Source of the DNA: a virus
Direction: 5' to 3' (one strand)
DNA: 46,529 nucleotides
IMG/VR virus record: IMGVR_UViG_3300045988_058853
Span: 1 to 46,529 of that record
The notes beneath the pieces were generated by a model. That model made no database searches and had not been told where the DNA came from. It saw nothing but the letters and a program-made list of their open reading frames with translations. Below, piece after piece: positions 4,050-46,529 of this stretch (position 1 is the first letter of the stretch; the number at the start of each line of letters is the position of its first letter). Position numbers and translations under genes: made by a program.

Positions 4050-4250
4050 TTAAAATGGGAAAAAGTTAGTTTTTAATCCAAGTGGATTTATATAAAAATG
4101 GAGTTTATTGTATTCTCTGTGAAAAGACAAAGAACGTCTTATTTTCTTTTCTTTTTGAGTAAATGCGTAAAAACGTCTACCTCCATTAACAATATAATAG
4201 TTTAGCTTTCTTTTGTAAGCTACTAAACCGTTAAACTTTTTGTTTTTCAT
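4050..4250 (-). CDS. Hypothetical small basic protein
   Basis: 66 aa; ATG preceded by GGAGGTAAGAA; 4-nt overlap with erf. Confidence 0.5.
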   Translation of the reverse strand: MKNKKFNGLVAYKRKLNYYIVNGGRRFYAFTQKEKKIRRSLSFHREYNKLHFYINPLGLKTNFFPF

Positions 4251-4864
4251 TTCTTACCTCCTTCGATCTCTGCTCTTTTTTTTGATAAGGCATTCATAAA
4301 AGTACTATCAGATTGATACGATTGATTAGCTTTAAACAAGCTGCTTAATTGTTCAACCGTTGTACACTCGTTGACGTATCCGACCAAAATAGCCGTTTGA
4401 CTCTGTGAGTTATCCGGTTGACTTGTTGATGAATACTTAGCACCCTTCTTATTTGCCGCTTTTCCTTCGTTTTCCGGCATTCCGTTTAATGAATCATTAT
4501 CTATACTATCATCAATTGCAAAAAGTCCACACAGGGCGTATTTTCGTGCATAGCTTGATGTTGCACCGGTCAACTGTGCACCGTCCATTCCTTTTTTGCT
4601 TTCTTCTTCACGAGCAAATGCAGTTGCCTCTTCTGATTCTCCTGTTTCAATATCAACAACCTTTGCAGTCGCTTTAACGTAGAATCTACCTTCAATATAC
4701 TCAATTGTATCGGTTACATTCACATAACAACCGTATTTGCCGCACACCTCTTTTGCTGTCTGCAAAATGTCCTCACATGAACGGTAATAATACCCACCGA
4801 ACTTATTATAACGTCCTTTTTTGACGTTCATCTCGTTTTGAATCTTTGATAAATTTTTAATCAT
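4247..4864 (-). CDS. erf: ERF-family single-strand annealing protein
   Basis: KFGGYYYRSCEDIL...GRFYVKATAKVVD...GATSSYARKYALCGLFAIDD is characteristic of ERF superfamily recombinases. Confidence 0.8.
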   Translation of the reverse strand: MIKNLSKIQNEMNVKKGRYNKFGGYYYRSCEDILQTAKEVCGKYGCYVNVTDTIEYIEGRFYVKATAKVVDIETGESEEATAFAREEESKKGMDGAQLTGATSSYARKYALCGLFAIDDSIDNDSLNGMPENEGKAANKKGAKYSSTSQPDNSQSQTAILVGYVNECTTVEQLSSLFKANQSYQSDSTFMNALSKKRAEIEGGKK

Positions 4865-5105
4865 TGTTTTTTGGTTTTATGTTAAACAGAAAATTTGCGT
4901 CCACTCCAGTAGCCTCACATATCTTTGAGACCCATTCAATATTAATCTTTCGTGTCCTCCGGTTGCAAAGAGAGGACATGTTTACCGTCCTTGATTTTGG
5001 CTTTGTATCCTCCCACAACATTTCGGCTATCTCTTTTTTACTCACTTTTAATCCTTTCAACTTAGCGTTTAAAATGGCTTCATTAATCTTAAAATCACTC
5101 GACAT
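4857..5105 (-). CDS. XRE/Cro-like HTH transcriptional regulator
   Basis: 82 aa; LKGLKVSKKEIAEMLWEDTKPKSRTVNMSSLCN...IEWVSKICEATGVDANFLF fits an HTH_3-type fold. Confidence 0.6.
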   Translation of the reverse strand: MSSDFKINEAILNAKLKGLKVSKKEIAEMLWEDTKPKSRTVNMSSLCNRRTRKINIEWVSKICEATGVDANFLFNIKPKNND

Positions 5106-5268
5106 CTATTACCTCCCTTCCACATTCTTCGCATTTATAAATATTTTCTTCTTCCTGTTCCGGCTCACAATCGTAATCGCAATATTCTTTGCTAAAAACC
5201 GGGTAAGATTGCCAAAGGTATAAATCGCCTCCGCAATACGGACAAACATGTACTTCATTCTGATTCAT
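5095..5268 (-). CDS. Small zinc-ribbon protein (57 aa; below the ORF-track cutoff)
   Basis: Own translation: MNQNEVHVCPYCGGDLYLWQSYPVFSKEYCDYDCEPEQEEENIYKCEECGREVIDVE. CPYC...CEEC pairs. It is the first gene after promoter cassette F and overlaps the XRE start by 11 nt. Confidence 0.55.
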   Translation of the reverse strand: MNQNEVHVCPYCGGDLYLWQSYPVFSKEYCDYDCEPEQEEENIYKCEECGREVIDVE

Positions 5269-5380
5269 ATATACTACTTTTAATTGTTACTTACTTAATT
5301 CAACAATGCAAAGATAAGGCAAAACTTTAAATACACAAAGAATTTCTTTAATTTTATTGTTAATGAAATTTAAAACGCTG
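5269..5380 (-). promoter_or_regulatory. Promoter/leader cassette copy F (diverged); -7 box TATCTTTG = plus 5308..5315, with TTTG 19 nt upstream
   Basis: Minus strand ctTTTGtgtatttaaagttttgcctTATCTTTGcattgttgaattaagtaagtaacaatt; shares leader and -33 segments with the other cassettes. Confidence 0.5.
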
Positions 5381-5487
5381 GAAATATACGAATAGAACGA
5401 CTGTTCGAACTATTTTTGTAGAACTTTTCTTAAATACTTGTTACTACTTATTGTTTATTGACTCGTTTAGTCCGTGAGGATAGAACG

Positions 5488-5525: not shown

Positions 5526-5699
5526 TTACATACCGGATAACTTGCGATTGATAGCGTCTAATATCCTACCTTTTAAAAATATATTTAAGTTTCTCTTATA
5601 CAAGTTTTTTAGATAATACACAGATTCCATATTAAGGTATCTTTCGTAATAATCGATTTTATTACATGATAAAAATCTTACAGTTTCATCTTCATTCAT
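5526..5699 (-). CDS. Small ORF (57 aa) translationally coupled to thyA; below the ORF-track cutoff
   Basis: Own translation: [57 protein letters not shown]. Its ATG overlaps the thyA stop (ATGA) and is preceded by GGGAGGTAGCAGT. Its stop lies 2 nt before the terminator stem. Confidence 0.5.
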
Positions 5700-6496
5700 A
5701 CTGCTACCTCCCCTCTTATTGCCGAATGGCTGTTATAATGAATAATATCTATATCCTCAAACTTAAAATCAAAAAGATCGGTAACGGAAGAATTCAAAAC
5801 AAGTTCCGGCAATCGCAACGGAATGCGATCTAATTGCGTCCTTACCTGTTCAACATGATTCAAGTATATGTGAGCGTCACCCAACGTATGAATGAATTTC
5901 CGTGGTTTCAGATTACACACATGTGCAACCATAGCAAGCAACAACGAATAAGACGCTATATTGAACGGAACGCCCAAGAATAAATCTGCACTACGTTGAT
6001 ACAATTGCAGGTCTAAAAAGCCATCCTTTGATACGTAGAACTGATAAAAGCAATGACATGGAGGCAAGTTCATTTTGTCAAGGTCGCCAACGTTCCATGA
6101 ATTAACGATTAATCTACGTGAATAGGGATCATTCTTAATCATCTCAATGACTGATTTAAGTTGATCTATACTTGTACGGCTGTTAACACGCCAATCACGC
6201 CACTGCGCACCGTATATCCGTCCTAAATTACCGTCCTTGTCTGCCCATGCATCCCAAATATGAACACCGTTTTTAAGCAGGTACTTAATATTGGTATCAC
6301 CTTTAATGAACCAAAGCAATTCATGTATAATACCCTTTGTGAATAGCTTTTTAGTAGTTACAAGCGGGAAGCCGTCACGAAGATCATAAACCTTTTGAGT
6401 ACCACCGAAAACGCTGATTGTTCCCGTTCCTGTTCGATCTTCACGCTTTTCGCCATAATTCAAAACATAAGAAAGTAAGTCTAAATACTGTTTCAT
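5696..6496 (-). CDS. thyA: Thymidylate synthase (ThyA type)
   Basis: [30 protein letters not shown] (catalytic Cys), [18 protein letters not shown] with Asn retained in PFNIAS. Confidence 0.95.
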
Positions 6497-6499
6497 AAT

Positions 6500-6700
6500 T
6501 TACTTGTTATTTTTAACCTGATATTTAATTAGATCATTTTCTCTCACTCTACGAATAAAACCATATTGACTCTGAACGAGATAATTTACGTTCTTATCCT
6601 TTTTACCTACGTGAATCTCAATGGAGAATACTCTAAACGGCTCTTTATGTGCACCGTACATCACTTCTTCGTCAACGTTAAACCTTGTTTTTATAACCAT
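6500..6700 (-). CDS. Hypothetical protein (66 aa)
   Basis: The track ORF 6500..6775 starts at a TTG inside the promoter cassette. The first ATG (6700) gives MVIKTRFNVDEEV... Confidence 0.55.
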   Translation of the reverse strand: MVIKTRFNVDEEVMYGAHKEPFRVFSIEIHVGKKDKNVNYLVQSQYGFIRRVRENDLIKYQVKNNK

Positions 6701-6820
6701 GATATTTGTTTTTAAATTGTTATTACTTTGTTTCCTTTTGACATTGCAAATATAAAGATTAAATTTAAAACACAAAGAGAAACTTTAAGTTTTAACGTGA
6801 AATTAACCTTTGCAAACAAA
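6701..6820 (-). promoter_or_regulatory. Promoter/leader cassette copy A (-7 box TATATTTG = plus 6747..6754)
   Basis: aattgttattactttgtttccttttgacattgcaaatataaag... is near-identical to copies B, C and D. Confidence 0.6.
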
Positions 6821-6821
6821 G

Positions 6822-6847
6822 CAAAAAAAAGAGGGGATAGGCCCTCT
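6822..6847 (-). terminator. Rho-independent terminator after 6849..7682
   Basis: Stem agaggg/ccctct with an 8-nt T-run on the minus strand (plus A-run 6823-6830), directly after the stop codon. Confidence 0.7.
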
Positions 6848-6848
6848 C

Positions 6849-7682
6849 TTATAATTTAACACCCTCAAACTCAATGTCGTTTACCTTCATAAAGTCAGCC
6901 AGTGCAAATGCTTGTTCCCTTGTTACTTTGACTTTAAACGCTCTTACATAAACCTGTTCGCTCTGATGCTTGTTTTCCGGCTGTTTTAGCGGCTGTTGTA
7001 TCCGATTCAATATGTCTGTCAGCTGAGGCGAGTTTTGAGCCGTGGTGGCTTCCAATGCCTTATTAACGAGTGATACACCGTATTGGTAGGTATTGTTATA
7101 GTCCAACGTATCTTGATATCGGTCAATTATAGCCATGTAGCAAGGTTCACCCTCAAAATGCTCTTTCAGTTTCTCGAAGTCAGCCGCCACCAGTTCAAAC
7201 AGTTCGTTAATCTCAGCCCGGACAATCGCAATACCTTTGTTCTTGTTTAGCCAGTTCGATTTAAAGCAACGGTTAAAATTTATAAGGTACTCGTTATGTT
7301 CGTCGAAATAGTCCCTTATTTGCTTCATCTTTGCGTCTTTTTCTTCCTGCTCAAACTTCTTAATCTGCAAATCTATGCTGTTTGAGGTGAGGTCTAACAT
7401 GGAACATGTGTCCTTAACCACATCTTTGAACTTGTTGAAAGGTTGCATGTATATCTTTTCGAGTTCGATTCGGGTATCGTTTAAGGCTTTAGACGATTTG
7501 TTAATCATTGCCCGATCTGCTTTTGCCTCTTTTATATCGTCCTCAGTATATGTTATACATTCATATACCTTCATCTTTTCTCTGACAATATCACGCATCT
7601 GAGAGACTCCCTCTATCATCTCCGACAGCTTTTTATCCTTAGTAATTAGCTGCAATTGGTTTTCAGTTATTCTATCTTTCAT
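6849..7682 (-). CDS. Hypothetical protein, DUF1351-like (recombination-module associated in other siphophages)
   Basis: 277 aa, helical. The N-terminal pattern (EKMKVYECITYTEDDIKEAKADRAMINK...LNDTRIELEK) recalls DUF1351; memory-based only. Confidence 0.4.
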   Translation of the reverse strand: MKDRITENQLQLITKDKKLSEMIEGVSQMRDIVREKMKVYECITYTEDDIKEAKADRAMINKSSKALNDTRIELEKIYMQPFNKFKDVVKDTCSMLDLTSNSIDLQIKKFEQEEKDAKMKQIRDYFDEHNEYLINFNRCFKSNWLNKNKGIAIVRAEINELFELVAADFEKLKEHFEGEPCYMAIIDRYQDTLDYNNTYQYGVSLVNKALEATTAQNSPQLTDILNRIQQPLKQPENKHQSEQVYVRAFKVKVTREQAFALADFMKVNDIEFEGVKL

Positions 7683-8158: not shown

Positions 8159-8848
8159 TTACTTATTGATTAATTTATAGAACTTATCTTTTCCTTCCAC
8201 GGTCACTAATGTCTGAGAGCCTGTATTTTCGCCTCTGGCCCATTCCTTTAGAACAAAATACTTACCTACATATTTGGCTATCGGTTTTAATTTTCTTTTA
8301 GCATCTCTATATAAGTATCCATTCAATAACAAATATTCTATAAAGAAACGTTCAGAAACTCCTATCATCTTAGCCGTATCTCTTAGATTTAAATTACTTC
8401 CTCTTTCTACTAAAGTATCGAAATAATCGGCTTTTGGCTTCATTGATTCATTTTCCAATGCAAGAACTTGCTTTTGTTCCTCTGATAAAACTAATGCTTT
8501 CAAGGCTTCTAAATATGTCTGAGGAAGCGCAGGCACGTTTTGTCTTTCCTTTGTTTCAAGTTCCTCCCACCGGATAACGAGTTTTGCCCTCGCTTCATCG
8601 TTGAACTTTGTTGCTATATACAGGCATTCTGTTTTATTTAGCTTATACATAGGTTGTTCTCTATTCCATTGATCTACATAAGAGGTTAACGGAAATTTCC
8701 GTTGACCTATTTTTACCCAAGCAATCTCCATAACTCTAATAGCTTCCATTACGTCACAATGCCGTTTACCTGTAATTTCGGCAATCTCTTTTGAAGTCAT
8801 ATATTCACTTGCGTTTATAGTTTCGCCAACTTTAATAATGTTATTCAT
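8159..8848 (-). CDS. Rha-family regulator / KilAC antirepressor (paralog 2 of 5)
   Basis: N-term MNNIIKVGETINASEYMTSKEIAEITGKRHCDVMEAIR...ECLYIATKFNDEARAKLVIRWEELE. C-term KPKADYFDTLVERGSNLNLRDTAKMIGVSERFFIEYLLLNGYLYRD (KilAC). Confidence 0.8.
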   Translation of the reverse strand: MNNIIKVGETINASEYMTSKEIAEITGKRHCDVMEAIRVMEIAWVKIGQRKFPLTSYVDQWNREQPMYKLNKTECLYIATKFNDEARAKLVIRWEELETKERQNVPALPQTYLEALKALVLSEEQKQVLALENESMKPKADYFDTLVERGSNLNLRDTAKMIGVSERFFIEYLLLNGYLYRDAKRKLKPIAKYVGKYFVLKEWARGENTGSQTLVTVEGKDKFYKLINK

Positions 8849-9407: not shown

Positions 9408-9647
9408 TTATAATACATCTTGTTTAATATCTCCATTTGAAAACACATACGTTACCAATATGCAGCGTATATTTGAGTCGACCATTTCGTTTTCAAAGAT
9501 AGTCCAAAATACCGTATGCCCGAACTTTTCAGCGCATTCACGCTGTTTTTTCTTAATCTGAGTCAATGCACCTCTAATTGTTTTTGCTCTAACCGAATAG
9601 GTATAATTAGCAAAAGATTCTCTAAAATACCATGTTTTAATTTTCAT
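9408..9647 (-). CDS. Hypothetical protein (79 aa)
   Basis: The track ORF starts at a TTG inside cassette B. The first ATG (9647) gives MKIKTWYFRESF... Confidence 0.55.
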   Translation of the reverse strand: MKIKTWYFRESFANYTYSVRAKTIRGALTQIKKKQRECAEKFGHTVFWTIFENEMVDSNIRCILVTYVFSNGDIKQDVL

Positions 9648-9760
9648 AATCGTATGCTTTAATGTTACTACTTTGTTTCTTTCGACACTGCAAATATAAA
9701 TCAAAACTTTAAATTACAAAGCAAAACTTTAATCTTTAACACTAATTTAACGTTTACCCG
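9648..9760 (-). promoter_or_regulatory. Promoter/leader cassette copy B (-7 box TATATTTG = plus 9691..9698)
   Basis: aatgttactactttgtttctttcgacactgcaaatataaatcaaaactttaaattacaaagcaaaactttaatctttaacac; first promoter after the late-operon terminators. Confidence 0.6.
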
Positions 9761-9775
9761 TCTGAGATAAGACAA

Positions 9776-9808
9776 TAAAAAACCCCGCTACTTTCACAAG
9801 CAACGGGG
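9776..9808 (-). terminator. Rho-independent terminator (second of a tandem pair) at the end of the late/lysis operon
   Basis: Minus strand CCCCGTTGCttgtgaaagtaGCGGGG followed by TTTTTT. Confidence 0.65.
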
Positions 9809-9898
9809 AAAAATGAAAAATGATAAAAAATCAAATAAACAACAATTACCTAACTAATTAACCTATATTATATATCAATGAATAGAAATTTTCTTTTT

Positions 9899-9929
9899 AA
9901 AAACCTACCTATTTTCACAAACCAGTAGG
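9899..9929 (-). terminator. Weak terminator-like hairpin (first of the tandem pair)
   Basis: Minus strand CCTACtggtttgtgaaaataGGTAGG + TTTTT. The stem is only 5 bp. The loop TTGTGAAAATAG resembles the loop of the 9776..9808 hairpin. Confidence 0.35.
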
Positions 9930-10108
9930 GGATAATCACTTAATATTAACCATGATTGCAATTATTAACAACGCTTTGTTAATGATACGTTTGCTTCTAC
10001 ATAAAGACTTACCAATAAAAAAATGATTAATAATTTATTTATTTGTAATTCTCTGAGTGCAAATGTAGGCATTATTTTTATACCTGCAATAGCTTTAACC
10101 AACGTTAA

Positions 10109-11129: not shown

Positions 11130-11630
11130 TTATACCCCCTTGTGAATTACTTGTTTCTCTTTCTCTTCCTGCTCTTCGATAATCTTTGACGCATGTTCAC
11201 CCATTAGCCTCTTAAACTCAAATCTAATGATGTGATAGATCAGTTTGAGACCTTTGTTGTTCGGGTATGTCATGCACAAGTTACGGAAGCCGTTGCATAA
11301 GTAGACGTACATAAACACATACGTGATTGTCTTTGCGCACATGATAGCAGCGTCTTTATCTCCCATCTTAGTTACCGCTGAGAATATCACTACTATAATC
11401 ATTATATACAGCAAAAACTCCTGCAAAGCCGATACGAATTTAAAGATAGTGAATCTTTGAGCTCCTTTAATTGACACGCTTACACCGTCCGCACGCATAC
11501 CGCAAATTATGTTAAACACGAACATGAACACGAGTGCCGTTAAGAAACCGGACGTAGGTGTCAAAAATGCAAGAATAGGGCTGCATGTGGATACTATTAG
11601 CAGCCTTAATTGTTCTTGTGATACTGACAT
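11130..11630 (-). CDS. Putative holin (multi-TM membrane protein with a charged C-terminus)
   Basis: At least 3 hydrophobic segments (ILAFLTPTSGFLTALVFMFVFNII; LLYIMIIVVIFSAV; ITYVFMYVYL) and an EEQEEKEKQ tail, immediately upstream of the endolysin. Confidence 0.6.
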   Translation of the reverse strand: MSVSQEQLRLLIVSTCSPILAFLTPTSGFLTALVFMFVFNIICGMRADGVSVSIKGAQRFTIFKFVSALQEFLLYIMIIVVIFSAVTKMGDKDAAIMCAKTITYVFMYVYLCNGFRNLCMTYPNNKGLKLIYHIIRFEFKRLMGEHASKIIEEQEEKEKQVIHKGV

Positions 11631-25725: not shown

Positions 25726-26481
25726 TTACAATTTTACGTTATTAATTAATTTTAAAAAGTGATCTCTACCTTTTGCAGTTACCAGTGTTTGAGTCCCTGC
25801 CTTTTCACCTTTCGCCCATTCTTTCAACTCCAAATAGTTTCCAACATACTGGGCTATTGGCTTCAACTTTCCTTTCTGATCTCGGTATATGTACTTCTTA
25901 TCAATCAGGAGAAAGATAAGTGCTTTTTCAGACACGCCTAACAGCTTTGCTGTATCTCTGAAATTGGTTAGTCCGTTCCGGTCTACTATTTCATCAAAGT
26001 ATTCGGCTTTGGGCTTCATATCTTTATTCTCTATCTGCAACCGTTCGTTTTCCTCTACCTGTACGAGTAGTTCCTTTAAAGCCTCTTTGTACGTTTGAGG
26101 CAATTTAGGTTGATTGTCCATTAGAGCGTTTTCCAATTTTTCAATATAAGAAATAACTGCTTTACGGACAAACTTACTTTCACGTACTAAAACCTGCTTT
26201 GCTTGTGATAGAGTCAACTCAAACATTGGGTATTCTTGACCGTTCTGAGGGTGTTTATATAGGGTAGGCAGAATTTTCTGCATACCTATTTCCTCGTCAA
26301 ATTCATCTCTAATAACATCTAATAAAGTTTTATGTTTCAATTTAGTTCTGTCACCTTCCTGCTCTCTAAACAAATTGATTTGTTTCAATAACTCCAAAGA
26401 TGTTATTTTCTCCTGCGTACGTTCGCCAACTTTGATTAATTCATTCATTTGTTTTCTTGTTTTTATTATTGCGGGTGACAT
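25726..26481 (-). CDS. KilAC-domain antirepressor (paralog 3 of 5) with a divergent N-domain
   Basis: C-term KPKAEYFDEIVDRNGLTNFRDTAKLLGVSEKALIFLLIDKKYIYRD...LELKEWAKGEKAGTQTLVT is close to the paralog 2 C-term. The track start (26517) is a TTG. ATG at 26481. An alternative ATG at 26448 gives MNELIKVGE, matching the leader of paralogs 1, 2 and 4. Confidence 0.75.
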   Translation of the reverse strand: MSPAIIKTRKQMNELIKVGERTQEKITSLELLKQINLFREQEGDRTKLKHKTLLDVIRDEFDEEIGMQKILPTLYKHPQNGQEYPMFELTLSQAKQVLVRESKFVRKAVISYIEKLENALMDNQPKLPQTYKEALKELLVQVEENERLQIENKDMKPKAEYFDEIVDRNGLTNFRDTAKLLGVSEKALIFLLIDKKYIYRDQKGKLKPIAQYVGNYLELKEWAKGEKAGTQTLVTAKGRDHFLKLINNVKL

Positions 26482-26506
26482 TTCTGCCACCCTGTTAACT
26501 ACTTGA

Positions 26507-26737
26507 TTACTTACCAAAATCTATTACTATGTTAATACAATGTTTGTTGCAGTCAATTGTGAATGGTACATTGTGAACGTTACAAGCATGAAGAATAGCA
26601 TTCGTTAAAACTGTGTTCTCTTTTCCGTAACCGCATGATACTCCTTCATCCGAACATTGTGCACACCCATCACCACCAAGCAATTTATACATTGCATAAA
26701 CACTCTCACAAAATTGTTTTTTAGTCATTGTTGCCAT
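26507..26737 (-). CDS. Small Cys-rich protein (76 aa)
   Basis: First gene after cassette C; GGDGCAQCSDEGVSCGYG...HACNVH...IDCNKHC. Confidence 0.55.
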   Translation of the reverse strand: MATMTKKQFCESVYAMYKLLGGDGCAQCSDEGVSCGYGKENTVLTNAILHACNVHNVPFTIDCNKHCINIVIDFGK

Positions 26738-26846
26738 AATTGTTGTTTTTTAATTGTTACTACTTTGTTTCCTTTTGACATTGCAAATATAAGCATAACT
26801 TTTAAAATGCAAAGCAAAACTTTAATCTTTAACACTTATTTAACAC
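26738..26846 (-). promoter_or_regulatory. Promoter/leader cassette copy C (-7 box TATATTTG = plus 26784..26791)
   Basis: tttttaattgttactactttgtttccttttgacattgcaaatataa (1 mismatch to copy D over 46 nt) and ttaatctttaacacttatttaacacaaaa (29 nt identical to D). Confidence 0.65.
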
Positions 26847-26880
26847 AAAAGGGGATATATACATATATGTATACTCCCCT
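26847..26880 (-). terminator. Rho-independent terminator after the head/neck genes
   Basis: Long bulged stem ggggatatata / tatgtata(c)tcccc. The minus strand continues TTTTG. Confidence 0.6.
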
Positions 26881-26887
26881 TGTCGTA

Positions 26888-27457
26888 TTATGGATAACAC
26901 GCCTCCGGTGCAATCATATCACACACAAAACGTAGGCAGGCATAAGGATAGACGTAGAATTGATTGTCGGTTTTCTCAATACTAAAGCCGTCATACACAT
27001 TCTTTGCGTCATTAAATATCCGCTTAACGTTCAAACCTCCGTATGACAATTCAAGTTCATGCGTTAACGCTCGCAATATGCGTTGTTTGACGAACTCAAC
27101 ATTGTACCCCTCTGCACCGGGAATTGTACGGGTGTCGAACCAGAATATAATACTCACCTCACCCTTCAGATCACCGAAACCAAAGTCCCCATTCCCCTCG
27201 TAGTCCTGCGAGTCATGAATATAGAAAAAGCAGGTGTTGCCGTACTTATCATTTGGCTCTAACCTCAAATAGTCTTTATCCTTGTAATAAACGGACGGAG
27301 TGATGAACTTTCCTTTCTCCGTTCGCTCCACTAACTTATATGCGCTTCCAAACGCATAATTTAGCCATTGTAGCGACTTTACAAGGCTAAACTGTACATT
27401 TCCTATCACTTCATCGAAAAGTACCGCATTCGGCTTTAAAATAGCTCTATCTTTCAT
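26888..27457 (-). CDS. Hypothetical structural (neck/head-tail joining position) protein
   Basis: 189 aa; positional only. Confidence 0.45.
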   Translation of the reverse strand: MKDRAILKPNAVLFDEVIGNVQFSLVKSLQWLNYAFGSAYKLVERTEKGKFITPSVYYKDKDYLRLEPNDKYGNTCFFYIHDSQDYEGNGDFGFGDLKGEVSIIFWFDTRTIPGAEGYNVEFVKQRILRALTHELELSYGGLNVKRIFNDAKNVYDGFSIEKTDNQFYVYPYACLRFVCDMIAPEACYP

Positions 27458-38214: not shown

Positions 38215-38934
38215 TTATTTGTTTAAAGTTAATGTTTTGCGTATAAAATCTAATCCCTTTTGAAACACCACTGTCTTTATATTAATGCAGTTAGTTCCAT
38301 CACTTTTTGTATATTGAGTTTCAACGGTTCTAAAATACCCCAAATCTATATACTTTTGATAAGGCATGTTTTTACGATCAAGAACACGTTTATCTCTTAA
38401 TACTTCAAATATTTTATTCCGACCTATCCCCATATTCAACACAGTTGCAACCGTTCGCATATCAATAGTGTCCTCGCTACCTGTAACAGCATTATAAAAC
38501 TCAACCTTTGGAGTCTGCTCTAACAGCAATTTATTTTTCTCCTCTATTTCCTCCGCTTGTTTTGCTTCTAACATTAAAGCCTCGCTAAATGTAGACGGAA
38601 TAACGAAGTTGCCGAAACGCTTCTCCTTTTCGAGTTCTTCCCAACGATTAATGATTTTAGCCCGTAGATTTGCATCATATCCGCTTGCAAGAAGTAGGCT
38701 ATCTTTTTTAGTTAGAAGATAATAAGGGTCTTTTCTTTCTGCGTTATTCCCTAACTTGGTGATTTTGAACATCAATTCAAAATTGAATTTATGTTTTTCT
38801 TCCAGTTGTTCAAGGATATTGCGAATATCTCTCATAACATTTGAATGTTGTTTACCTGTGAGCTCTGCTATCTGCAAAGAACTCATAGTTTCTTTTGCGT
38901 TTATAGTTTCGCCAACTTTAATCAAATTATTCAT
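38215..38934 (-). CDS. Rha-like / KilAC-type antirepressor (paralog 4 of 5)
   Basis: MNNLIKVGETINAKETMSSLQIAELTGKQHSNVMRDIR...RAKIINRWEELE. C-term TPKVEFYNAVTGSEDTIDMRTVATVL. Confidence 0.7.
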   Translation of the reverse strand: MNNLIKVGETINAKETMSSLQIAELTGKQHSNVMRDIRNILEQLEEKHKFNFELMFKITKLGNNAERKDPYYLLTKKDSLLLASGYDANLRAKIINRWEELEKEKRFGNFVIPSTFSEALMLEAKQAEEIEEKNKLLLEQTPKVEFYNAVTGSEDTIDMRTVATVLNMGIGRNKIFEVLRDKRVLDRKNMPYQKYIDLGYFRTVETQYTKSDGTNCINIKTVVFQKGLDFIRKTLTLNK

Positions 38935-39219: not shown

Positions 39220-39487
39220 GATAAAACTCCCTTCGTACTTTTTCAAACCTGCTAAACGCCTCCACTTCACTCTCAGAAAACACAAGTTCACCCAAACCTG
39301 CACAGTATAAATCAGCTTTCAATATAATTTTATCAAGTTCTAAAAGAGAATCGAAGGTTTTATCCCTATCCTTTCTAATTTTTCTTTTTCCACTCAAAAT
39401 ATTGGTAAACTGTCTTTGTTCCTTTAAGCTAAATTTAACCGTAACAAAACGACTTTTAAGTCGATTAATCTTTCTTGATTTCTTCAT
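39209..39487 (-). CDS. Hypothetical basic protein
   Basis: ATG start; operon context. Confidence 0.5.
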   Translation of the reverse strand: MKKSRKINRLKSRFVTVKFSLKEQRQFTNILSGKRKIRKDRDKTFDSLLELDKIILKADLYCAGLGELVFSESEVEAFSRFEKVRREFYHGK

Positions 39488-39863
39488 TTGAATTTATGTC
39501 TTTTAAGTTGGTTATCCATTCGTTCAACGGGTAAGGTATTCCGGCTTTCTTCATCATTGATTTAGCTTTTTCCCAGTTACCCAAAGACGGGTTAAAACCC
39601 TTCATTTCCTCGATTGCTCTATCATGGCACTGTTTAGGTGTCTCACCATTCAATTTCTCAATACTTTTCACTCTAAACCCTGTGATTGACTCTGTTATAT
39701 CTACCATCTGAAATGTTTTATCCCAGTGTAGAAAATATTGATAAGCACCGATTTGGTACATAAACCCAGTTACAACGCTTACACCGTCTTCGTATAGCCC
39801 AGTACTTTCGTTTAGTCTATGAACCGCAATCTTAAACTCTCCGGGCATTCTTCTTTTTTCCAT
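39465..39863 (-). CDS. Hypothetical protein
   Basis: ATG start; operon context. Confidence 0.55.
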   Translation of the reverse strand: MEKRRMPGEFKIAVHRLNESTGLYEDGVSVVTGFMYQIGAYQYFLHWDKTFQMVDITESITGFRVKSIEKLNGETPKQCHDRAIEEMKGFNPSLGNWEKAKSMMKKAGIPYPLNEWITNLKDINSNEEIKKD

Positions 39864-39884
39864 AATTCTACTATTTAATTGTTA

Positions 39885-40061
39885 TTACTTTACTTCTAAA
39901 TCTCTAAGGATATTTGTTGCACGCTCGTTCCCATTCTCAGCCGCTTTAACTAAAGCCTCGTAATGTGATAGCTTGTTTCCGCCAAAAACGTGTGCAGAAC
40001 GCAAAAGCATTAATAACTTTGAATGACTGATCTTTTCTCCTTTATAAATGTAAGTTGTCAT
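39885..40061 (-). CDS. Small ORF (58 aa; below the track cutoff), first gene after cassette D
   Basis: Own translation: MTTYIYKGEKISHSKLLMLLRSAHVFGGNKLSHYEALVKAAENGNERATNILRDLEVK. Confidence 0.45.
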   Translation of the reverse strand: MTTYIYKGEKISHSKLLMLLRSAHVFGGNKLSHYEALVKAAENGNERATNILRDLEVK

Positions 40062-40170
40062 ATTGGTTAATTTTTAATTGTTACTACTTTGTTTCCTTTT
40101 GACACTGCAAATATAAAGCAAAACTTTAATATTCTAATTATAAATTTAATCTTTAACACTTATTTAACAC
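40062..40170 (-). promoter_or_regulatory. Promoter/leader cassette copy D (-7 box TATATTTG = plus 40108..40115)
   Basis: Near-identical to copy C in the leader (46 nt, 1 mismatch) and the distal segment (29 nt identical). Confidence 0.65.
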
Positions 40171-40203
40171 AAAAAGGGATACCCTGCTTTAGAGTATCCC
40201 CCC
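40171..40203 (-). terminator. Rho-independent terminator after ssb
   Basis: Stem gggatac (40176-40182) / gtatccc (40194-40200). The minus strand continues TTTTTGTG. Confidence 0.7.
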
Positions 40204-40207
40204 GTTT

Positions 40208-40663
40208 TTAGAATGGCAAATCATCTGCAAATTGCTGTTCTTTTAAGGCTCGTGATGGTGGCGGTGTCGGTTGTACTGGCGGATGACCCCCACTTCCGGC
40301 AGATTCCGCCCGCTGACCGCTATTGCCTCCAGGCTTCGCTCCCATCTGCATGTTAGAAACTAAAATTTCCGCAATAGTCTTTTCTACGTTATTCGAGTCT
40401 GTGTACTTCCGATAATGCAAAGTGCCCTCTACATATAACTCTATACCTTTAGTAACATATTGCTCGCATACACCTGCCAAGCCTCCTTTGAATACCACGT
40501 TGTGAAAGTCCGTGCGTTCCGGCACTTCAACACCGCTACTCGTTTTATATGCACGCTCGTTTGTAGCGATAGACACGTTGCAAATTTTACCTCCATTATC
40601 AAACGTTTTTACTTGCGGGTCATTGCACACCCGACCGATCAACTGAATTTTGTTTAAGTTCAT
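40208..40663 (-). CDS. ssb: Single-stranded DNA-binding protein
   Basis: OB-fold N-term MNLNKIQLIGRVCNDPQVKTF...TDFHNVVFKG...LYVEGTLHYRKY, Gly/Pro-rich linker, acidic tail DDLPF. Confidence 0.95.
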   Translation of the reverse strand: MNLNKIQLIGRVCNDPQVKTFDNGGKICNVSIATNERAYKTSSGVEVPERTDFHNVVFKGGLAGVCEQYVTKGIELYVEGTLHYRKYTDSNNVEKTIAEILVSNMQMGAKPGGNSGQRAESAGSGGHPPVQPTPPPSRALKEQQFADDLPF

Positions 40664-42436: not shown

Positions 42437-42873
42437 TTCTTTACGTATTTTGTTGCGTCCTCTATAAAAACTCCCAGTTCTTCGGCTGCAAACTGTTTTA
42501 AAAAATCAATATACTCTACAAACTCACTGTTTGATAAGTCGTTGATACTTACCGGGTCACTCCGATACTCACCCGTCTCAATATCCACAACCTCACCCAT
42601 TGTTACCGGACATAAGTTTCGCATATACAACTCTGTGTCTTTTTCGCTCCATCTATCACCATTGTCGTACATTCCTTTTTGAAACTGTGGTACTACCACT
42701 TTGTAGTAATATGCTTTCATGGCGACAGATTGCGAAGGCTCGTAAACGCTAAAACTTGCTATGATATTCTTTCCTTTGTGCAGTTTCGCAAACTCGTTTA
42801 GCTCACCCATGTACATTTGCAACTGTCCGTTACTTGTTACCTTCCCCGGTATTGTTATCCTGTTTTGCTTCAT
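42433..42873 (-). CDS. Hypothetical protein
   Basis: 146 aa, ATG start. Confidence 0.55.
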   Translation of the reverse strand: MKQNRITIPGKVTSNGQLQMYMGELNEFAKLHKGKNIIASFSVYEPSQSVAMKAYYYKVVVPQFQKGMYDNGDRWSEKDTELYMRNLCPVTMGEVVDIETGEYRSDPVSINDLSNSEFVEYIDFLKQFAAEELGVFIEDATKYVKK

Positions 42874-43177
42874 TTTGTTTCATTTTAGAAAATACCTTAG
42901 CAAATACACTACCACACAAAGAAGAAATAAAGCCACGCACAGCAGCAGGGAGATCGCTCTTTCTCAGCAGAATTTTTTCAAACTCTTCGATAATGTCCGA
43001 AACAGTCATATCGTCAATGCGATCTAACATAATCCGCTTCGTCAATCCTCCATTTCTCAGAATTTTGTTTTTAGCTCGTTCAACATCTGAACGCATAGTA
43101 CTAAGCTGATTTGTTAATTCACCTTTAAACTCCTGTGATTTAATTACATCTTCAACTGTCATTTCATTAGTATTCAT
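42830..43177 (-). CDS. Hypothetical protein, first gene after cassette E
   Basis: 115 aa, ATG start. Confidence 0.55.
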   Translation of the reverse strand: MNTNEMTVEDVIKSQEFKGELTNQLSTMRSDVERAKNKILRNGGLTKRIMLDRIDDMTVSDIIEEFEKILLRKSDLPAAVRGFISSLCGSVFAKVFSKMKQNEAKQDNNTGEGNK

Positions 43178-43260
43178 ACTTTAATAAGTTTTTAAATCGT
43201 TACTACTATGATTAAATTTGATATTGCAAATTAAAGCAAAACTTTAATTATACGCAAACA
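43178..43260 (-). promoter_or_regulatory. Promoter/leader cassette copy E (diverged)
   Basis: aatcgttactactatgattaaatttgatattgcaaattaaagcaaaactttaatta shares the gttactact, ttgcaaat and gcaaaactttaat blocks. Confidence 0.45.
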
Positions 43261-43312
43261 AAAACGGATAAATCTTTCCGAAATACCCGTTATTTAACTT
43301 TTGTTTAGAATA

Positions 43313-44005
43313 TCACTTGAATAAGTTTAATATAAAATCTCTTCCCTTTCCAGTCCAACGTCGATCATACGTTATTTTTCCACTATCTAAAACTATTTGC
43401 TTTGTGGAGGTATATTCGTTTTCTGCATACTTCGCATAAAGCAACCAAGTTCCGTTTTGCTTGAACTGTATTCCCATCTTTTCAAGTACCTTATTTAATT
43501 CTATTGCAGAACGAAAACCAAGCTCTTTTGAAATTTCAGTAGTCGTATATGTTTTGTTATTATGGATAAGTCTTTCTACATTTTCCTTTGCCTCCTTTGC
43601 TTCGATCTGGGCTTTTTGTTTTTCTCTGTATTCGTTTGCCCATGCAATAGCCGCCTCAGCCGGGTCTGAAAAATTAGGCAATACAATCGATTGTTCTTTC
43701 AGTATCTTTTCCATTTTGTTAAAAGCGTCTATATAATCTTCCTTAAATTTCATTGCAGTTTCACCAGTATAGCCCATAACTAAAAGAGTGAAACCATCTT
43801 TATTCATAACATACATAGGTAGTTCTCTATTCTGATCGCTACAATAAGAGGAGAGCACGAAATTGTGCTGTCTAAATTTGTTACTACATTTTAAATCTCG
43901 AATGTCTTGCAAAACTCTCTTATGATCCTTCCCGAACTTTTCGGCTACTAATAAGCTACTTGTTAAAACTTGATTTGATTCTCCTTTAAATACTAAATCT
44001 TTCAT
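43313..44005 (-). CDS. Rha-family phage regulatory protein (paralog 5 of 5, most canonical Rha N-domain)
   Basis: LTSSLLVAEKFGKDHKRVLQDIRDL...LPMYVMNKDGFTLLVMGYTGETAMKFKEDYIDAFNKME. Confidence 0.75.
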   Translation of the reverse strand: MKDLVFKGESNQVLTSSLLVAEKFGKDHKRVLQDIRDLKCSNKFRQHNFVLSSYCSDQNRELPMYVMNKDGFTLLVMGYTGETAMKFKEDYIDAFNKMEKILKEQSIVLPNFSDPAEAAIAWANEYREKQKAQIEAKEAKENVERLIHNNKTYTTTEISKELGFRSAIELNKVLEKMGIQFKQNGTWLLYAKYAENEYTSTKQIVLDSGKITYDRRWTGKGRDFILNLFK

Positions 44006-44026
44006 ATTCTTATTATTTTAAAATTA

Positions 44027-44071
44027 AATGCCTCGATCCGTGTGCCGCCAAACAACACGAACCGAGGCATT
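44027..44071 (-). other. Long, locally GC-rich imperfect hairpin (terminator or structured RNA element)
   Basis: Outer stem aatgcctcg (44027-44035) / cgaggcatt (44063-44071); inner stem cgtgt/acacg. Confidence 0.4.
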
Positions 44072-44171
44072 AACGCTATTAAGCAATATCTTTAAATTTA
44101 TTGGCGGACAAATTTTACACCGCAAATATACGTACTAAACCGAATATAGCAATAGGCGAATGGTTAATAAA

Positions 44172-44387
44172 TCAAAATAAACTTGTTTGCGTGTCCGTCA
44201 GCTTAGAAATTATATCATCTACTTTCTTTTCCTCGGCCTCTTTCTCTTCCCTGTACTTTTCACCGAATCGCTCAAACCTCTTTTGCTTCCCTCGCATCCT
44301 TATGACAGCTTGAATCAAAACATCGCTTATTTCGCTATTTACTTGACCGCTATTCAATTTTCCCTTCATCTCTGAGTAATCTATCAT
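44172..44387 (-). CDS. Hypothetical protein (71 aa)
   Basis: The track start is a TTG; the ATG is at 44387. K/E-rich. Confidence 0.45.
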   Translation of the reverse strand: MIDYSEMKGKLNSGQVNSEISDVLIQAVIRMRGKQKRFERFGEKYREEKEAEEKKVDDIISKLTDTQTSLF

Positions 44388-45927: not shown

Positions 45928-46529
45928 TTAATCAAACGTCTCTGTTAGGTATCTCTCGTATATTTCCCTATGCTCGTCATTAGCAAAATACTGCTTTGTC
46001 TTATACTGCTGAGAGTTGTTTTGCTGATATTGGTTAGTAGCTCCCGTTTTCTCTCTCAGCCATTGCAGATATTGTTTAGGAGTTGACTCGTACACCAGCG
46101 ATGCCCAACCTTTCGATATGCTTTGTTGAATAAGGCTTTTAGCAAATTCTTCTTCAAACTGCGCTATCTCGTTTAAGTTAGCTTGCATAGCTGTTAGAGT
46201 CTTTGTCTTTACACGCCATTTCGGTTGAGTCATTAGAACGTAGAATAAGCGTTTAAAGTCCTCGGACTCGAAAGGAAATGTTAGCTGAGTAAATAGACTA
46301 TCTGTCCTTTCGATTGTTTTCTTTGTTACGTCAAGTCCTTTAGCGGTGAATCCAAATACTTCAGATGGTAGAGGATCATTGTTTGATTCAACTTCGAATA
46401 AATCCGTTTCTTCGCGCGTGGCTATACTATAATTGACGTTAGTCAATTTAGTATTACTATCTGTATATATACTATCTGGTATAGTCTGTTCATTCATGCA
46501 ACTTGCATTTTGCATATTTTCAACTTGCA
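45928..46529 (-). CDS. C-terminal part of the junction-spanning replisome-organizer-like gene (joined to 422->56 via the 55-bp overlap)
   Basis: Track ORF 45928..46515 (MQNASCMNEQ...). The frame stays open to the window end and is continuous with minus-strand 1..422. Confidence 0.7.
   Translation of the reverse strand, partial: QVENMQNASCMNEQTIPDSIYTDSNTKLTNVNYSIATREETDLFEVESNNDPLPSEVFGFTAKGLDVTKKTIERTDSLFTQLTFPFESEDFKRLFYVLMTQPKWRVKTKTLTAMQANLNEIAQFEEEFAKSLIQQSISKGWASLVYESTPKQYLQWLREKTGATNQYQQNNSQQYKTKQYFANDEHREIYERYLTETFD
46475..46529. repeat. Terminal overlap, copy 2 (identical to 1..55)
   Basis: Exact 55-nt identity with the window start. Consistent with circular closure of an assembly or with terminal redundancy. 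Confidence 0.95.

Follow-up and report, generated by a model that had tools for sequence, protein, structure and literature searches.

The DNA analysed here is IMG/VR virus record IMGVR_UViG_3300045988_058853, a stretch of 46,529 nucleotides (nt) that we refer to as the window, in which six short cassettes, lettered A to F in order of position, stand on the minus strand, each ahead of a small open reading frame (ORF). A typical cassette comprises, in the direction of transcription, a hairpin, an A/T-rich block, two promoter boxes and a conserved leader that runs up to the ATG. We consider it highly probable that each is a self-contained expression unit for the host RNA polymerase, with a leader that works independently of Shine-Dalgarno (SD) sites and a secondary role as a patch of homology.

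Results

Six cassettes in a Bacteroides phage genome

The minus strand carries all long ORFs of the window and is called the gene strand below. The first and last 55 nt are identical (1-55 = 46475-46529), and because both ends repeat, the window represents a closed, complete circular genome of 46,474 base pairs (bp). A tandem 22-nt repeat, CAACTTGCATTTTGCAT(A/T)TTT, lies at 25-67 in the end-repeat region. Over a 4-kb test region the window is 95% identical to the B. fragilis phage BF486P1, which bears out the Bacteroidota host proposed in an earlier reading of the DNA from its letters alone (hereafter the sequence-only reading). Identity in the same region is 93-94% to BK649P1, BF695P2/P3 and BF698P1/P3, and about 71% to the group of B124-14, B40-8 and Barc2635. 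The window phage is a Bacteroides siphophage with a complete 46.5-kb genome.

An nhmmer profile was built from the six window copies and run against the window and related phages. The window gave exactly six matches (E 2e-16 to 9e-28), each of them on the gene strand and with coordinates equal or close to those in the sequence-only reading (Table 1), and no seventh up to E=10. All six sites are syntenic across seven genomes; the six related phages carry six to eight syntenic copies each by the same profile, and BK649P1, BF698P1 and Barc2635 have a tandem extra cassette, D2. Cassettes B, C, D and E are closely similar, and A and F are diverged members. A 34-nt leader string occurred three times with at most three mismatches, and not once in 100 shuffles.

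Aligning the six copies, as the sequence-only reading had proposed, recovered the module it described, in the order hairpin, GTTAAAT..GTTAAA..TTAAAGTT block, TTTG, TAnnTTTG, leader and ATG. The first ORFs, of 57, 66, 79, 76, 58 and 115 amino acids (aa) from A to F, also agree with that reading. Its statement that two leaders differ at a single position holds for the fourth and fifth copies (26738 versus 40062, cassettes D and E) and not for the third and fourth (9648 versus 26738). D and E have one mismatch over the -7 box and leader, and share a 30-nt identical block upstream.

Promoter anatomy and conservation

A hairpin with a T-run stands directly 5' of the promoter in five of the six copies. 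In B to E, direct folding gave -16 to -25 kcal/mol for the hairpin, with the T-run following; that of F is weaker and sits where the other copies have the A/T-rich block, and A has none. A generic terminator scanner reported no terminator at D, owing to its loop and stem rules, and it was direct folding that revealed the hairpins. The A/T-rich block, GTTAAATnnnTGTTAAAnnTTAAAGTT, lies at about -72 to -37 and is referred to as the UP block. A TTTG follows at -33 in A, B, C, D and F, where E has TTAG, and the spacer from there to the -7 box (18-20 nt in A, B, C, D and F) is site-specific and the least conserved part. The -7 box, TAnnTTTG, is exact in A (TATCTTTG) and in B to E (TATATTTG), and F has one mismatch (TTAATTTG). 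On its 3' side stand CA and a purine, which we take as +1.

These boxes match the published consensus of the Bacteroides sigma factor sigma-ABfr, TTTG at about -33 and TAnnTTTG at -7 (Ryan et al. 2020, PMC7366714, where the consensus is credited to Bayley et al. 2000), as the sequence-only reading had recognised. The cassettes share with generic sigma-ABfr promoters a TTTG some 18-20 nt 5' of TAnnTTTG. It is this TTTG (for example 26810-26813 in D) that would be the functional -33 box, and not, as had been suggested, the TTTG inside the AAAGTTTTGC block. A sigma-70 scan has no bearing on Bacteroides.

Elsewhere on the gene strand, some ten intergenic TAnnTTTG boxes, for example those ahead of the head gene (34490), the tail-fibre gene (17172) and the terminase region (36694), have no conserved UP block or leader, and the cassettes therefore form a distinct, extended subclass. 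The cassettes occupy the non-structural regions and an accessory island that separates the head from the tail genes. Computed over 92 unique cassettes from isolates and IMG/VR contigs, conservation was 1.75 bits per position for -10 to -1, 1.35 for +1 to +12, 1.08 for the UP block and 0.78 for the -33 box. The leader is thus conserved beyond what a promoter needs, in line with the sequence-only reading.

Orthology with P_BfP1E6 of phage B124-14

The sequence of P_BfP1E6, a 'phage promoter' printed in PMC13634575 and a part widely used in Bacteroides, is found by BLAST at 4183-4282 of B124-14, on the minus strand, with 100% identity. The window-copy profile matches this locus (B124-14 4145-4253, E 9.5e-15) and five further B124-14 loci, all syntenic. 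Cassette B and P_BfP1E6 are identical in 70 of 100 columns, and both cassette B and its B124-14 counterpart lie 5' of a small ORF and thymidylate synthase (thyA). Alignment and gene order thus identify cassette B as the ortholog of P_BfP1E6 and the window cassettes as members of the same promoter/leader family, with which they share the six syntenic sites, UP block, -33 and -7 boxes, GCA plus purine, and leader. The window phage belongs to a different lineage, about 71% identical to B124-14, and activity is known for the B124-14 copy only.

P_BfP1E6 is described as a constitutive promoter from phage B124-14 (PMC10746243), as a strong promoter from a B. fragilis phage that is combined with 'its original RBS (RBSphage)', that is, its native ribosome-binding site (RBS), or with improved variants (PMC11554821), and as having UP elements and a -7 consensus that are not to be disrupted (bioRxiv 2025.03.18.644028). 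In CRISPR interference constructs the spacer of the single-guide RNA is fused directly after P_BfP1E6 ...TATATTTGCAG (...TTTGCAG) (PMC13634575), as would be expected if transcription began at the purine 3 nt past TTTG. By analogy we infer the same start for the window cassettes, which would place TAnnTTTG at -10 to -3 and make it 'the -7 box'.

As the B124-14 ortholog is constitutive in uninfected Bacteroides, the host RNA polymerase suffices. A class of promoters for a phage RNA polymerase was rejected: B124-14 has none annotated, and the ortholog works in uninfected cells. The promoter/leader family is therefore already known and exploited through its B124-14 ortholog, although the literature consulted deals with one copy, as an engineering part, and neither with a genomic family of six nor with recombination joints. 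Whitaker, Shepherd and Sonnenburg (2017, Cell 169:538) reportedly compared several phage copies.

Leader and translation

The leaders measure 38-47 nt, with the consensus RTGTCAAAAGGAAACAAAGTAGTAACAATTAAAAA followed by 6-10 nt. The sequence-only reading saw in their conservation a hint of a second function, such as a translation enhancer, an antiterminator site or an RNA-processing site. Folded with the first 20-25 nt of coding sequence, the leaders reach only -0.4 to -5 kcal/mol, which is not better than dinucleotide shuffles (z +0.16 to +1.6) and is worse for A to C; no Rfam family was found anywhere in the window at gathering thresholds. It is extremely improbable that the leader acts as a regulatory RNA structure, be it a riboswitch, an antiterminator target or a processing site: conservation past the promoter is what such an element would give, but the leaders are less structured than shuffled controls, Rfam offers no match, and no terminator lies between the start site and the ATG. 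Of the functions proposed, a translation enhancer fits best, given the unstructured leader, the fixed A residues and the use of RBSphage, while no evidence was found for an antiterminator or RNA-processing structure.

In Bacteroidetes, whose mRNAs have no SD sites, A at -3, -6 and -11 to -15 improves translation (PMC7366714). Across the seven genomes, A stands at -12 and at -13 relative to the ATG in 44 of 44 cassette copies, at -3 in 75% and at -6 in 73%. The motif GTAGTAACAATTAAAA is found 8-13 nt 5' of the ATG in every window copy. In addition, an orphan half-leader, AAAGTAATAACAATTAAAT, with two mismatches to the 3' motif of the leader, stands without a promoter 9 nt 5' of the ATG of ORF 39465-39863, the second gene of the E operon; it is either the scar of a lost cassette or a re-used initiation motif. 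Given the A positions, the motif-to-ATG distance and the equal distance in the orphan half-leader, the likeliest role for the 3' half of the leader is that of an initiation region optimised for SD-independent translation, in keeping with the use made of RBSphage. A translation role of the leader is well supported by this analogy and by the sequence statistics; for its 5' half, such a role is our inference.

SAS/ESAS elements of Cluster K mycobacteriophages are also conserved short motifs at a fixed distance 5' of some start codons, with a presumed role in translation initiation. SAS are 13-bp GC-rich motifs beside an SD-type site and are not fused to a promoter, whereas the window motif is A-rich, SD-independent and part of a promoter cassette.

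In most B to E copies an ATG or GTG occupies the putative +1 (6744, 9688, 26781 and 40105), at the head of the highly conserved +1 to +12 stretch. This could suggest translation from the very 5' end, where a leaderless mini-ORF would load ribosomes and be coupled to the downstream ATG. We find this very improbable: the peptide, of 6-18 codons, is not conserved, and a 1-nt indel shifts its frame in C and in the B copy of B124-14; A, F and the C copy of B124-14 have no RTG; leaderless mRNAs are rare in Bacteroides (PMC7366714); and the start site is itself a prediction.

The leader pattern had no match in 185,579 species genomes, so that it was not copied from a host gene and is not present in prophages at that stringency. 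In IMG/VR it was found at 51 loci; the contigs span 26-57 kb, the majority being of 42-48 kb and hence about the genome size of this phage group. With the stringent pattern, no spread beyond the group was seen in IMG/VR.

Cassettes as possible recombination joints

Breakpoints were located by pairwise BLAST of the window against its four closest relatives. At sites B, C, D and E homology breaks off no more than 20 nt from the cassette ATG, giving 12 such end-points where a uniform distribution predicts 0.6. The leader of D2 in BF698P1 is identical to that of window D up to the ATG, after which a different gene begins. Between the E leader and the resident gene, BF486P1 and BK649P1 have 184 bp of inserted DNA, which holds a 46-aa gene and a hairpin and is flanked by repeated TAACAATTAAAAA, and in BF486P1, BF695P2 and BF698P1 an extra small gene and hairpin are inserted at the B-site ATG.

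Two cassettes are hybrids. The UP block of window D matches the D site of BF698P1 and BK649P1, whereas its spacer, -7 box and leader are identical to D2 of the same phages, which is what a deletion between tandem cassettes would be expected to give. The E cassette of BF486P1 combines an E-type UP block with a B-type spacer and the B-site gene. Separately, the D-site cassette of BF695P2 (~11360-11451) ends inside the leader (...ATGTCAAACAACGAAAG) and continues into unrelated sequence with no ATG, apparently another leader-internal breakpoint.

The genes behind the cassettes vary in site as well. In each of two small-protein families, members occur at sites B, D and E, depending on the phage; to one belongs the 76-aa product of the window D gene, with homologs that follow the E site of B124-14 and Barc2635 and the B site of BF695P2 and BF698P1. 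Over 67 IMG/VR cassettes and the isolates, the first slot holds 16 protein families. An integron-like docking system was considered and rejected, since there is no integrase and no conserved attC-like core, and the junctions lie at variable microhomologies of 7-13 nt.

Within the B124-14 lineage, copies C, D, D2 and E share the leader variant ATTACTAACA in place of the AGTAGTAACA of the window lineage, which shows concerted change among paralogs. Such lineage-specific variants, together with the hybrid cassettes and the long identical stretches between D and E, would also arise if the likeness of the leaders were a by-product of recent duplication or gene conversion and the leader itself had no function. 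This is improbable, as the window and B124-14 lineages have 87-90% identity in the D and E leaders but about 71% in the 4-kb region and only 58-62% in the adjacent spacers; moreover, the A residues at -12 and -13 are invariant, the motif keeps a distance of 8-13 nt from the ATG, and in practical use the native leader makes a strong RBS.

Timing and candidate regulators

The sequence-only reading had assigned the cassettes to one co-regulated, early class. This is not supported as worded: the ortholog is constitutive in uninfected Bacteroides, and thymidylate synthase, the second gene behind cassette B, is a 'middle' gene in Bf12P1. For that phage, 89% identical to Barc2635, single-cell RNA-seq separated three modules, early (2 predicted promoters), middle (7) and late (5), with genes 16-20 as the early ones. 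Judged from gene order, these early genes would correspond to the C-site operon only, and cassette-driven genes probably span at least two temporal modules. A 340-bp non-coding gap (9769-10108) lies 5' of cassette C, after the lysis genes, and contains a second TAnnTTTG box, TACATTTG (10060-10067), which may correspond to the 'two promoters' of the Bf12P1 early cluster.

Five minus-strand paralogs join an N-terminal Rha domain to a C-terminal ANT/KilAC domain. Four lie in separate transcription units, namely the C, D and E operons and the unit behind a promoter box at 2333, and the fifth lies just 5' of cassette F. Parts of two of these genes (1774-2054 and 8554-8834) are 82-90% identical in DNA. 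The paralogs could act as regulators on the cassettes, and the UP block, the +1 to +12 stretch or both could then be operators for a phage regulator such as a Rha/ANT protein, which would turn the whole cassette class on or off in the course of infection. The phased repeats of the UP block (GTTAAAT..GTTAAA..TTAAAG) and +1 to +12 are more conserved than the -33 box, the UP block is 84% identical among orthologs against 68% for the spacer, the five Rha plus KilAC proteins are spread over transcription units, and cassette-driven genes appear in different temporal modules in Bf12P1. We nevertheless consider this unlikely, though compatible with the promoter/leader interpretation, because the ortholog is strongly constitutive with no phage protein present, so that no activator is needed, and because no palindromic operator is evident.

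Neighbouring genes and elements

Neither Pfam nor PHROG assigned a function to the six small first genes; larger homology and structure searches were not made. Behind A, the 57-aa ORF is followed by an ERF recombinase gene (4247-4864). A stable GC-rich hairpin, GGGTGGCAGAAATGTCACCC, stands directly 3' of the mobile small gene at the D site. It has no T-run, carries a GAAA or TTTC loop in the group, and is preceded by the leader-like AGTAGTTAACA, with the group form (A)GTAGTAACA. Its stem varies among relatives as GGGTGGCA/TGCCACCC, GGGTGATA/TATCACCC, AGCGGTA/TACCGCT and GGGTGGTA/TACCACCC, by compensatory changes, and the window copy has a G.U pair compatible only with gene-strand RNA. The element might stabilise the 3' end of the mRNA, serve as a site of processing or mark a place of recombination.

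Just 5' of the cassette F hairpin lies an 875-bp segment (43312-44186) with a TATATTTG box of its own (44123-44130) and a single Rha/ANT gene, at whose stop codon the segment exactly ends. BF486P1, BK649P1, BF695P2 and BF698P1 do not have this segment, which looks like a moron-type insertion. Elsewhere, 464-1279 on the minus strand encodes a protein of 271 aa in which Pfam places a PAPS-reductase domain (PF01507, E 1.5e-18); the enzyme may modify DNA or nucleotides.

Table 1 Positions of the cassettes, the genes behind them and associated elements in the window.
Feature	Positions	Strand	Particulars
Cassette A (diverged)	5269-5384	minus	nhmmer match 5270-5384, E 2e-16; no strong hairpin
A promoter		minus	-33 TTTG 5336-5339; -7 TATCTTTG 5309-5316
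A leader	5269-5306	minus	38 nt; putative start 5306; retains AAGTAACAATTAAAA; ATG 5266-5268
A first gene	5095-5268	minus	57 aa; CxxC motifs; phrog_33979, no assigned function
Cassette B (P_BfP1E6 ortholog)	6701-6850	minus	nhmmer match 6698-6820; hairpin 6827-6850
B promoter		minus	-33 TTTG 6773-6776; -7 TATATTTG 6747-6754
B leader	6701-6744	minus	putative start A 6744; ATG 6698-6700
B first gene	6500-6700	minus	66-aa orphan; then thymidylate synthase 5696-6496
Cassette C	9648-9808	minus	nhmmer match 9646-9768; hairpin 9783-9808, -23 kcal/mol
C promoter		minus	-33 TTTG 9717-9720; -7 TATATTTG 9691-9698
C leader	9648-9688	minus	41 nt, 1-nt deletions relative to D; putative start G 9688; ATG 9645-9647
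C first gene	9408-9647	minus	79-aa orphan
Cassette D (named in the sequence-only reading)	26738-26890	minus	nhmmer match 26735-26857; hairpin and T-run 26841-26890, -25 kcal/mol
D promoter		minus	UP block ~26817-26853; -33 TTTG 26810-26813; -7 TATATTTG 26784-26791
D leader	26738-26781	minus	44 nt; putative start A 26781; ATG 26735-26737
D first gene	26507-26737	minus	76-aa Cys-rich orphan (MATMTKKQFC...)
Cassette E	40062-40203	minus	nhmmer match 40059-40184; hairpin 40173-40203, -19.4 kcal/mol; preceded by ssb gene (40208-40663)
E promoter		minus	TTAG at -33 position 40134-40137; -7 TATATTTG 40108-40115
E leader	40062-40105	minus	putative start G 40105; ATG 40059-40061
E first gene	39885-40061	minus	58-aa orphan
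Cassette F (diverged)	43178-43292	minus	nhmmer match 43178-43292, E 4e-18; hairpin 43265-43289 in UP position
F promoter		minus	-33 TTTG 43255-43258; imperfect -7 TTAATTTG 43227-43234
F leader	43178-43224	minus	47 nt; putative start A 43224; retains GTAGTAACGATTTAAAAA; ATG 43175-43177
F first gene	42830-43177	minus	115-aa orphan
Orphan half-leader	39873-39891	minus	AAAGTAATAACAATTAAAT
GC-rich hairpin	26473-26492	minus	GGGTGGCAGAAATGTCACCC
GC-rich hairpins in relatives			L003 16456, 28132; L005/L006 (L005 = BF695P2); L007 16194
Rha/ANT paralogs	1322-2071, 8159-8848, 25726-26517, 38215-38934, 43313-44005	minus	Rha N-terminal, ANT/KilAC C-terminal

Discussion

The window cassettes would work as follows. 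An intrinsic-terminator hairpin would close the operon 5' of the cassette, and the A/T-rich block, with its TTAAA repeats about one helical turn apart, would serve as an UP element. The sigma-ABfr holoenzyme would then recognise TTTG at -33 and TAnnTTTG at -7 and start at the purine 3 nt after TTTG. The A-rich, unstructured leader of 38-47 nt would provide an SD-independent loading site for the ribosome, placing an A-run at -11 to -14 and A at -3 and -6 before the ATG of a small accessory gene and so giving strong expression. Secondarily, the cassettes would be homology patches at which small genes are inserted, deleted and moved between sites, a role suggested by the presence of six to eight near-identical copies in a genome that encodes an ERF single-strand annealing protein. 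The architecture, orthology, lack of RNA structure, A positions, breakpoints and hybrids come from the present analysis, and promoter and RBS activity from the literature on the B124-14 ortholog.

Several points weigh against this interpretation. E has no canonical -33 TTTG and F no canonical -7 box, A and F are diverged, and the start-site call rests on the use made of the ortholog. The most conserved stretch of the leader, +1 to +12, is far from the start codon and unexplained by the rule of A at -12 and -13; promoter escape, 5'-end stability, S1 binding or a regulator site may account for it. As regards recombination, the breakpoint excess over other gene starts is modest: counted per start, 4 of 6 cassette starts and 19 of 59 other gene starts have end-points (p=0.17, Fisher), and counted as start-by-phage pairs, which are non-independent, 9 of 24 and 31 of 236 (p=0.005). 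Given the former value, we do not claim the cassettes as the only mosaic joints.

A parallel is found in the PeSL (promoter-early stem-loop) cassettes of T4-type phages (Arbiol et al. 2010, PMC2839356; Comeau et al. 2014, PMC4122927). In both systems, small units of terminator and strong host-type promoter occur in many near-identical copies, flank small orphan genes and contain the junctions at which close relatives differ by indels or replacements (in the window, at sites B, C, D and E). The sequences are unrelated, however, and the boxes are of the sigma-ABfr and not the sigma-70 type; the window phage is a Bacteroides siphovirus from another host phylum and not a T4-like myovirus; its cassettes have a long conserved translation leader, with junctions often exactly at the boundary of leader and ATG; and the family numbers only six to eight copies at fixed syntenic sites. 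The window cassettes are thus an analog of PeSL and not a member.

From the breakpoints and hybrids we lean, if only slightly, towards PeSL-like docking, in which core promoter, leader, small orphan gene and GC hairpin would be copied, deleted and moved among the six fixed sites through short homologies, the UP block on the left and the leader on the right. ERF would probably carry out the exchange, and the leader would be conserved jointly by translation and recombination. The mechanism of recombination is our conjecture. What is new for the family is that breakpoints, hybrid cassettes and small orphan genes at differing sites indicate a role as recombination joints; some of the mobile small genes may be anti-defence genes.

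The six-copy feature is genuine and non-random, and the sequence-only reading holds for the most part. The promoter/leader finding is of small practical value in itself, as it rediscovers the family behind the strongest constitutive Bacteroides expression parts in a sister phage. It does offer natural variants for part libraries, drawn from six sites in many phages with site-specific spacers and leaders, and names the UP block and +1 to +12 as two candidate determinants of strength. The recombination aspect matters more for phage biology. If true, it would explain the exchange of small accessory genes among B124-14-like phages, which are faecal-pollution markers and therapy candidates, and would make the first slot behind each cassette a place to seek anti-defence genes.

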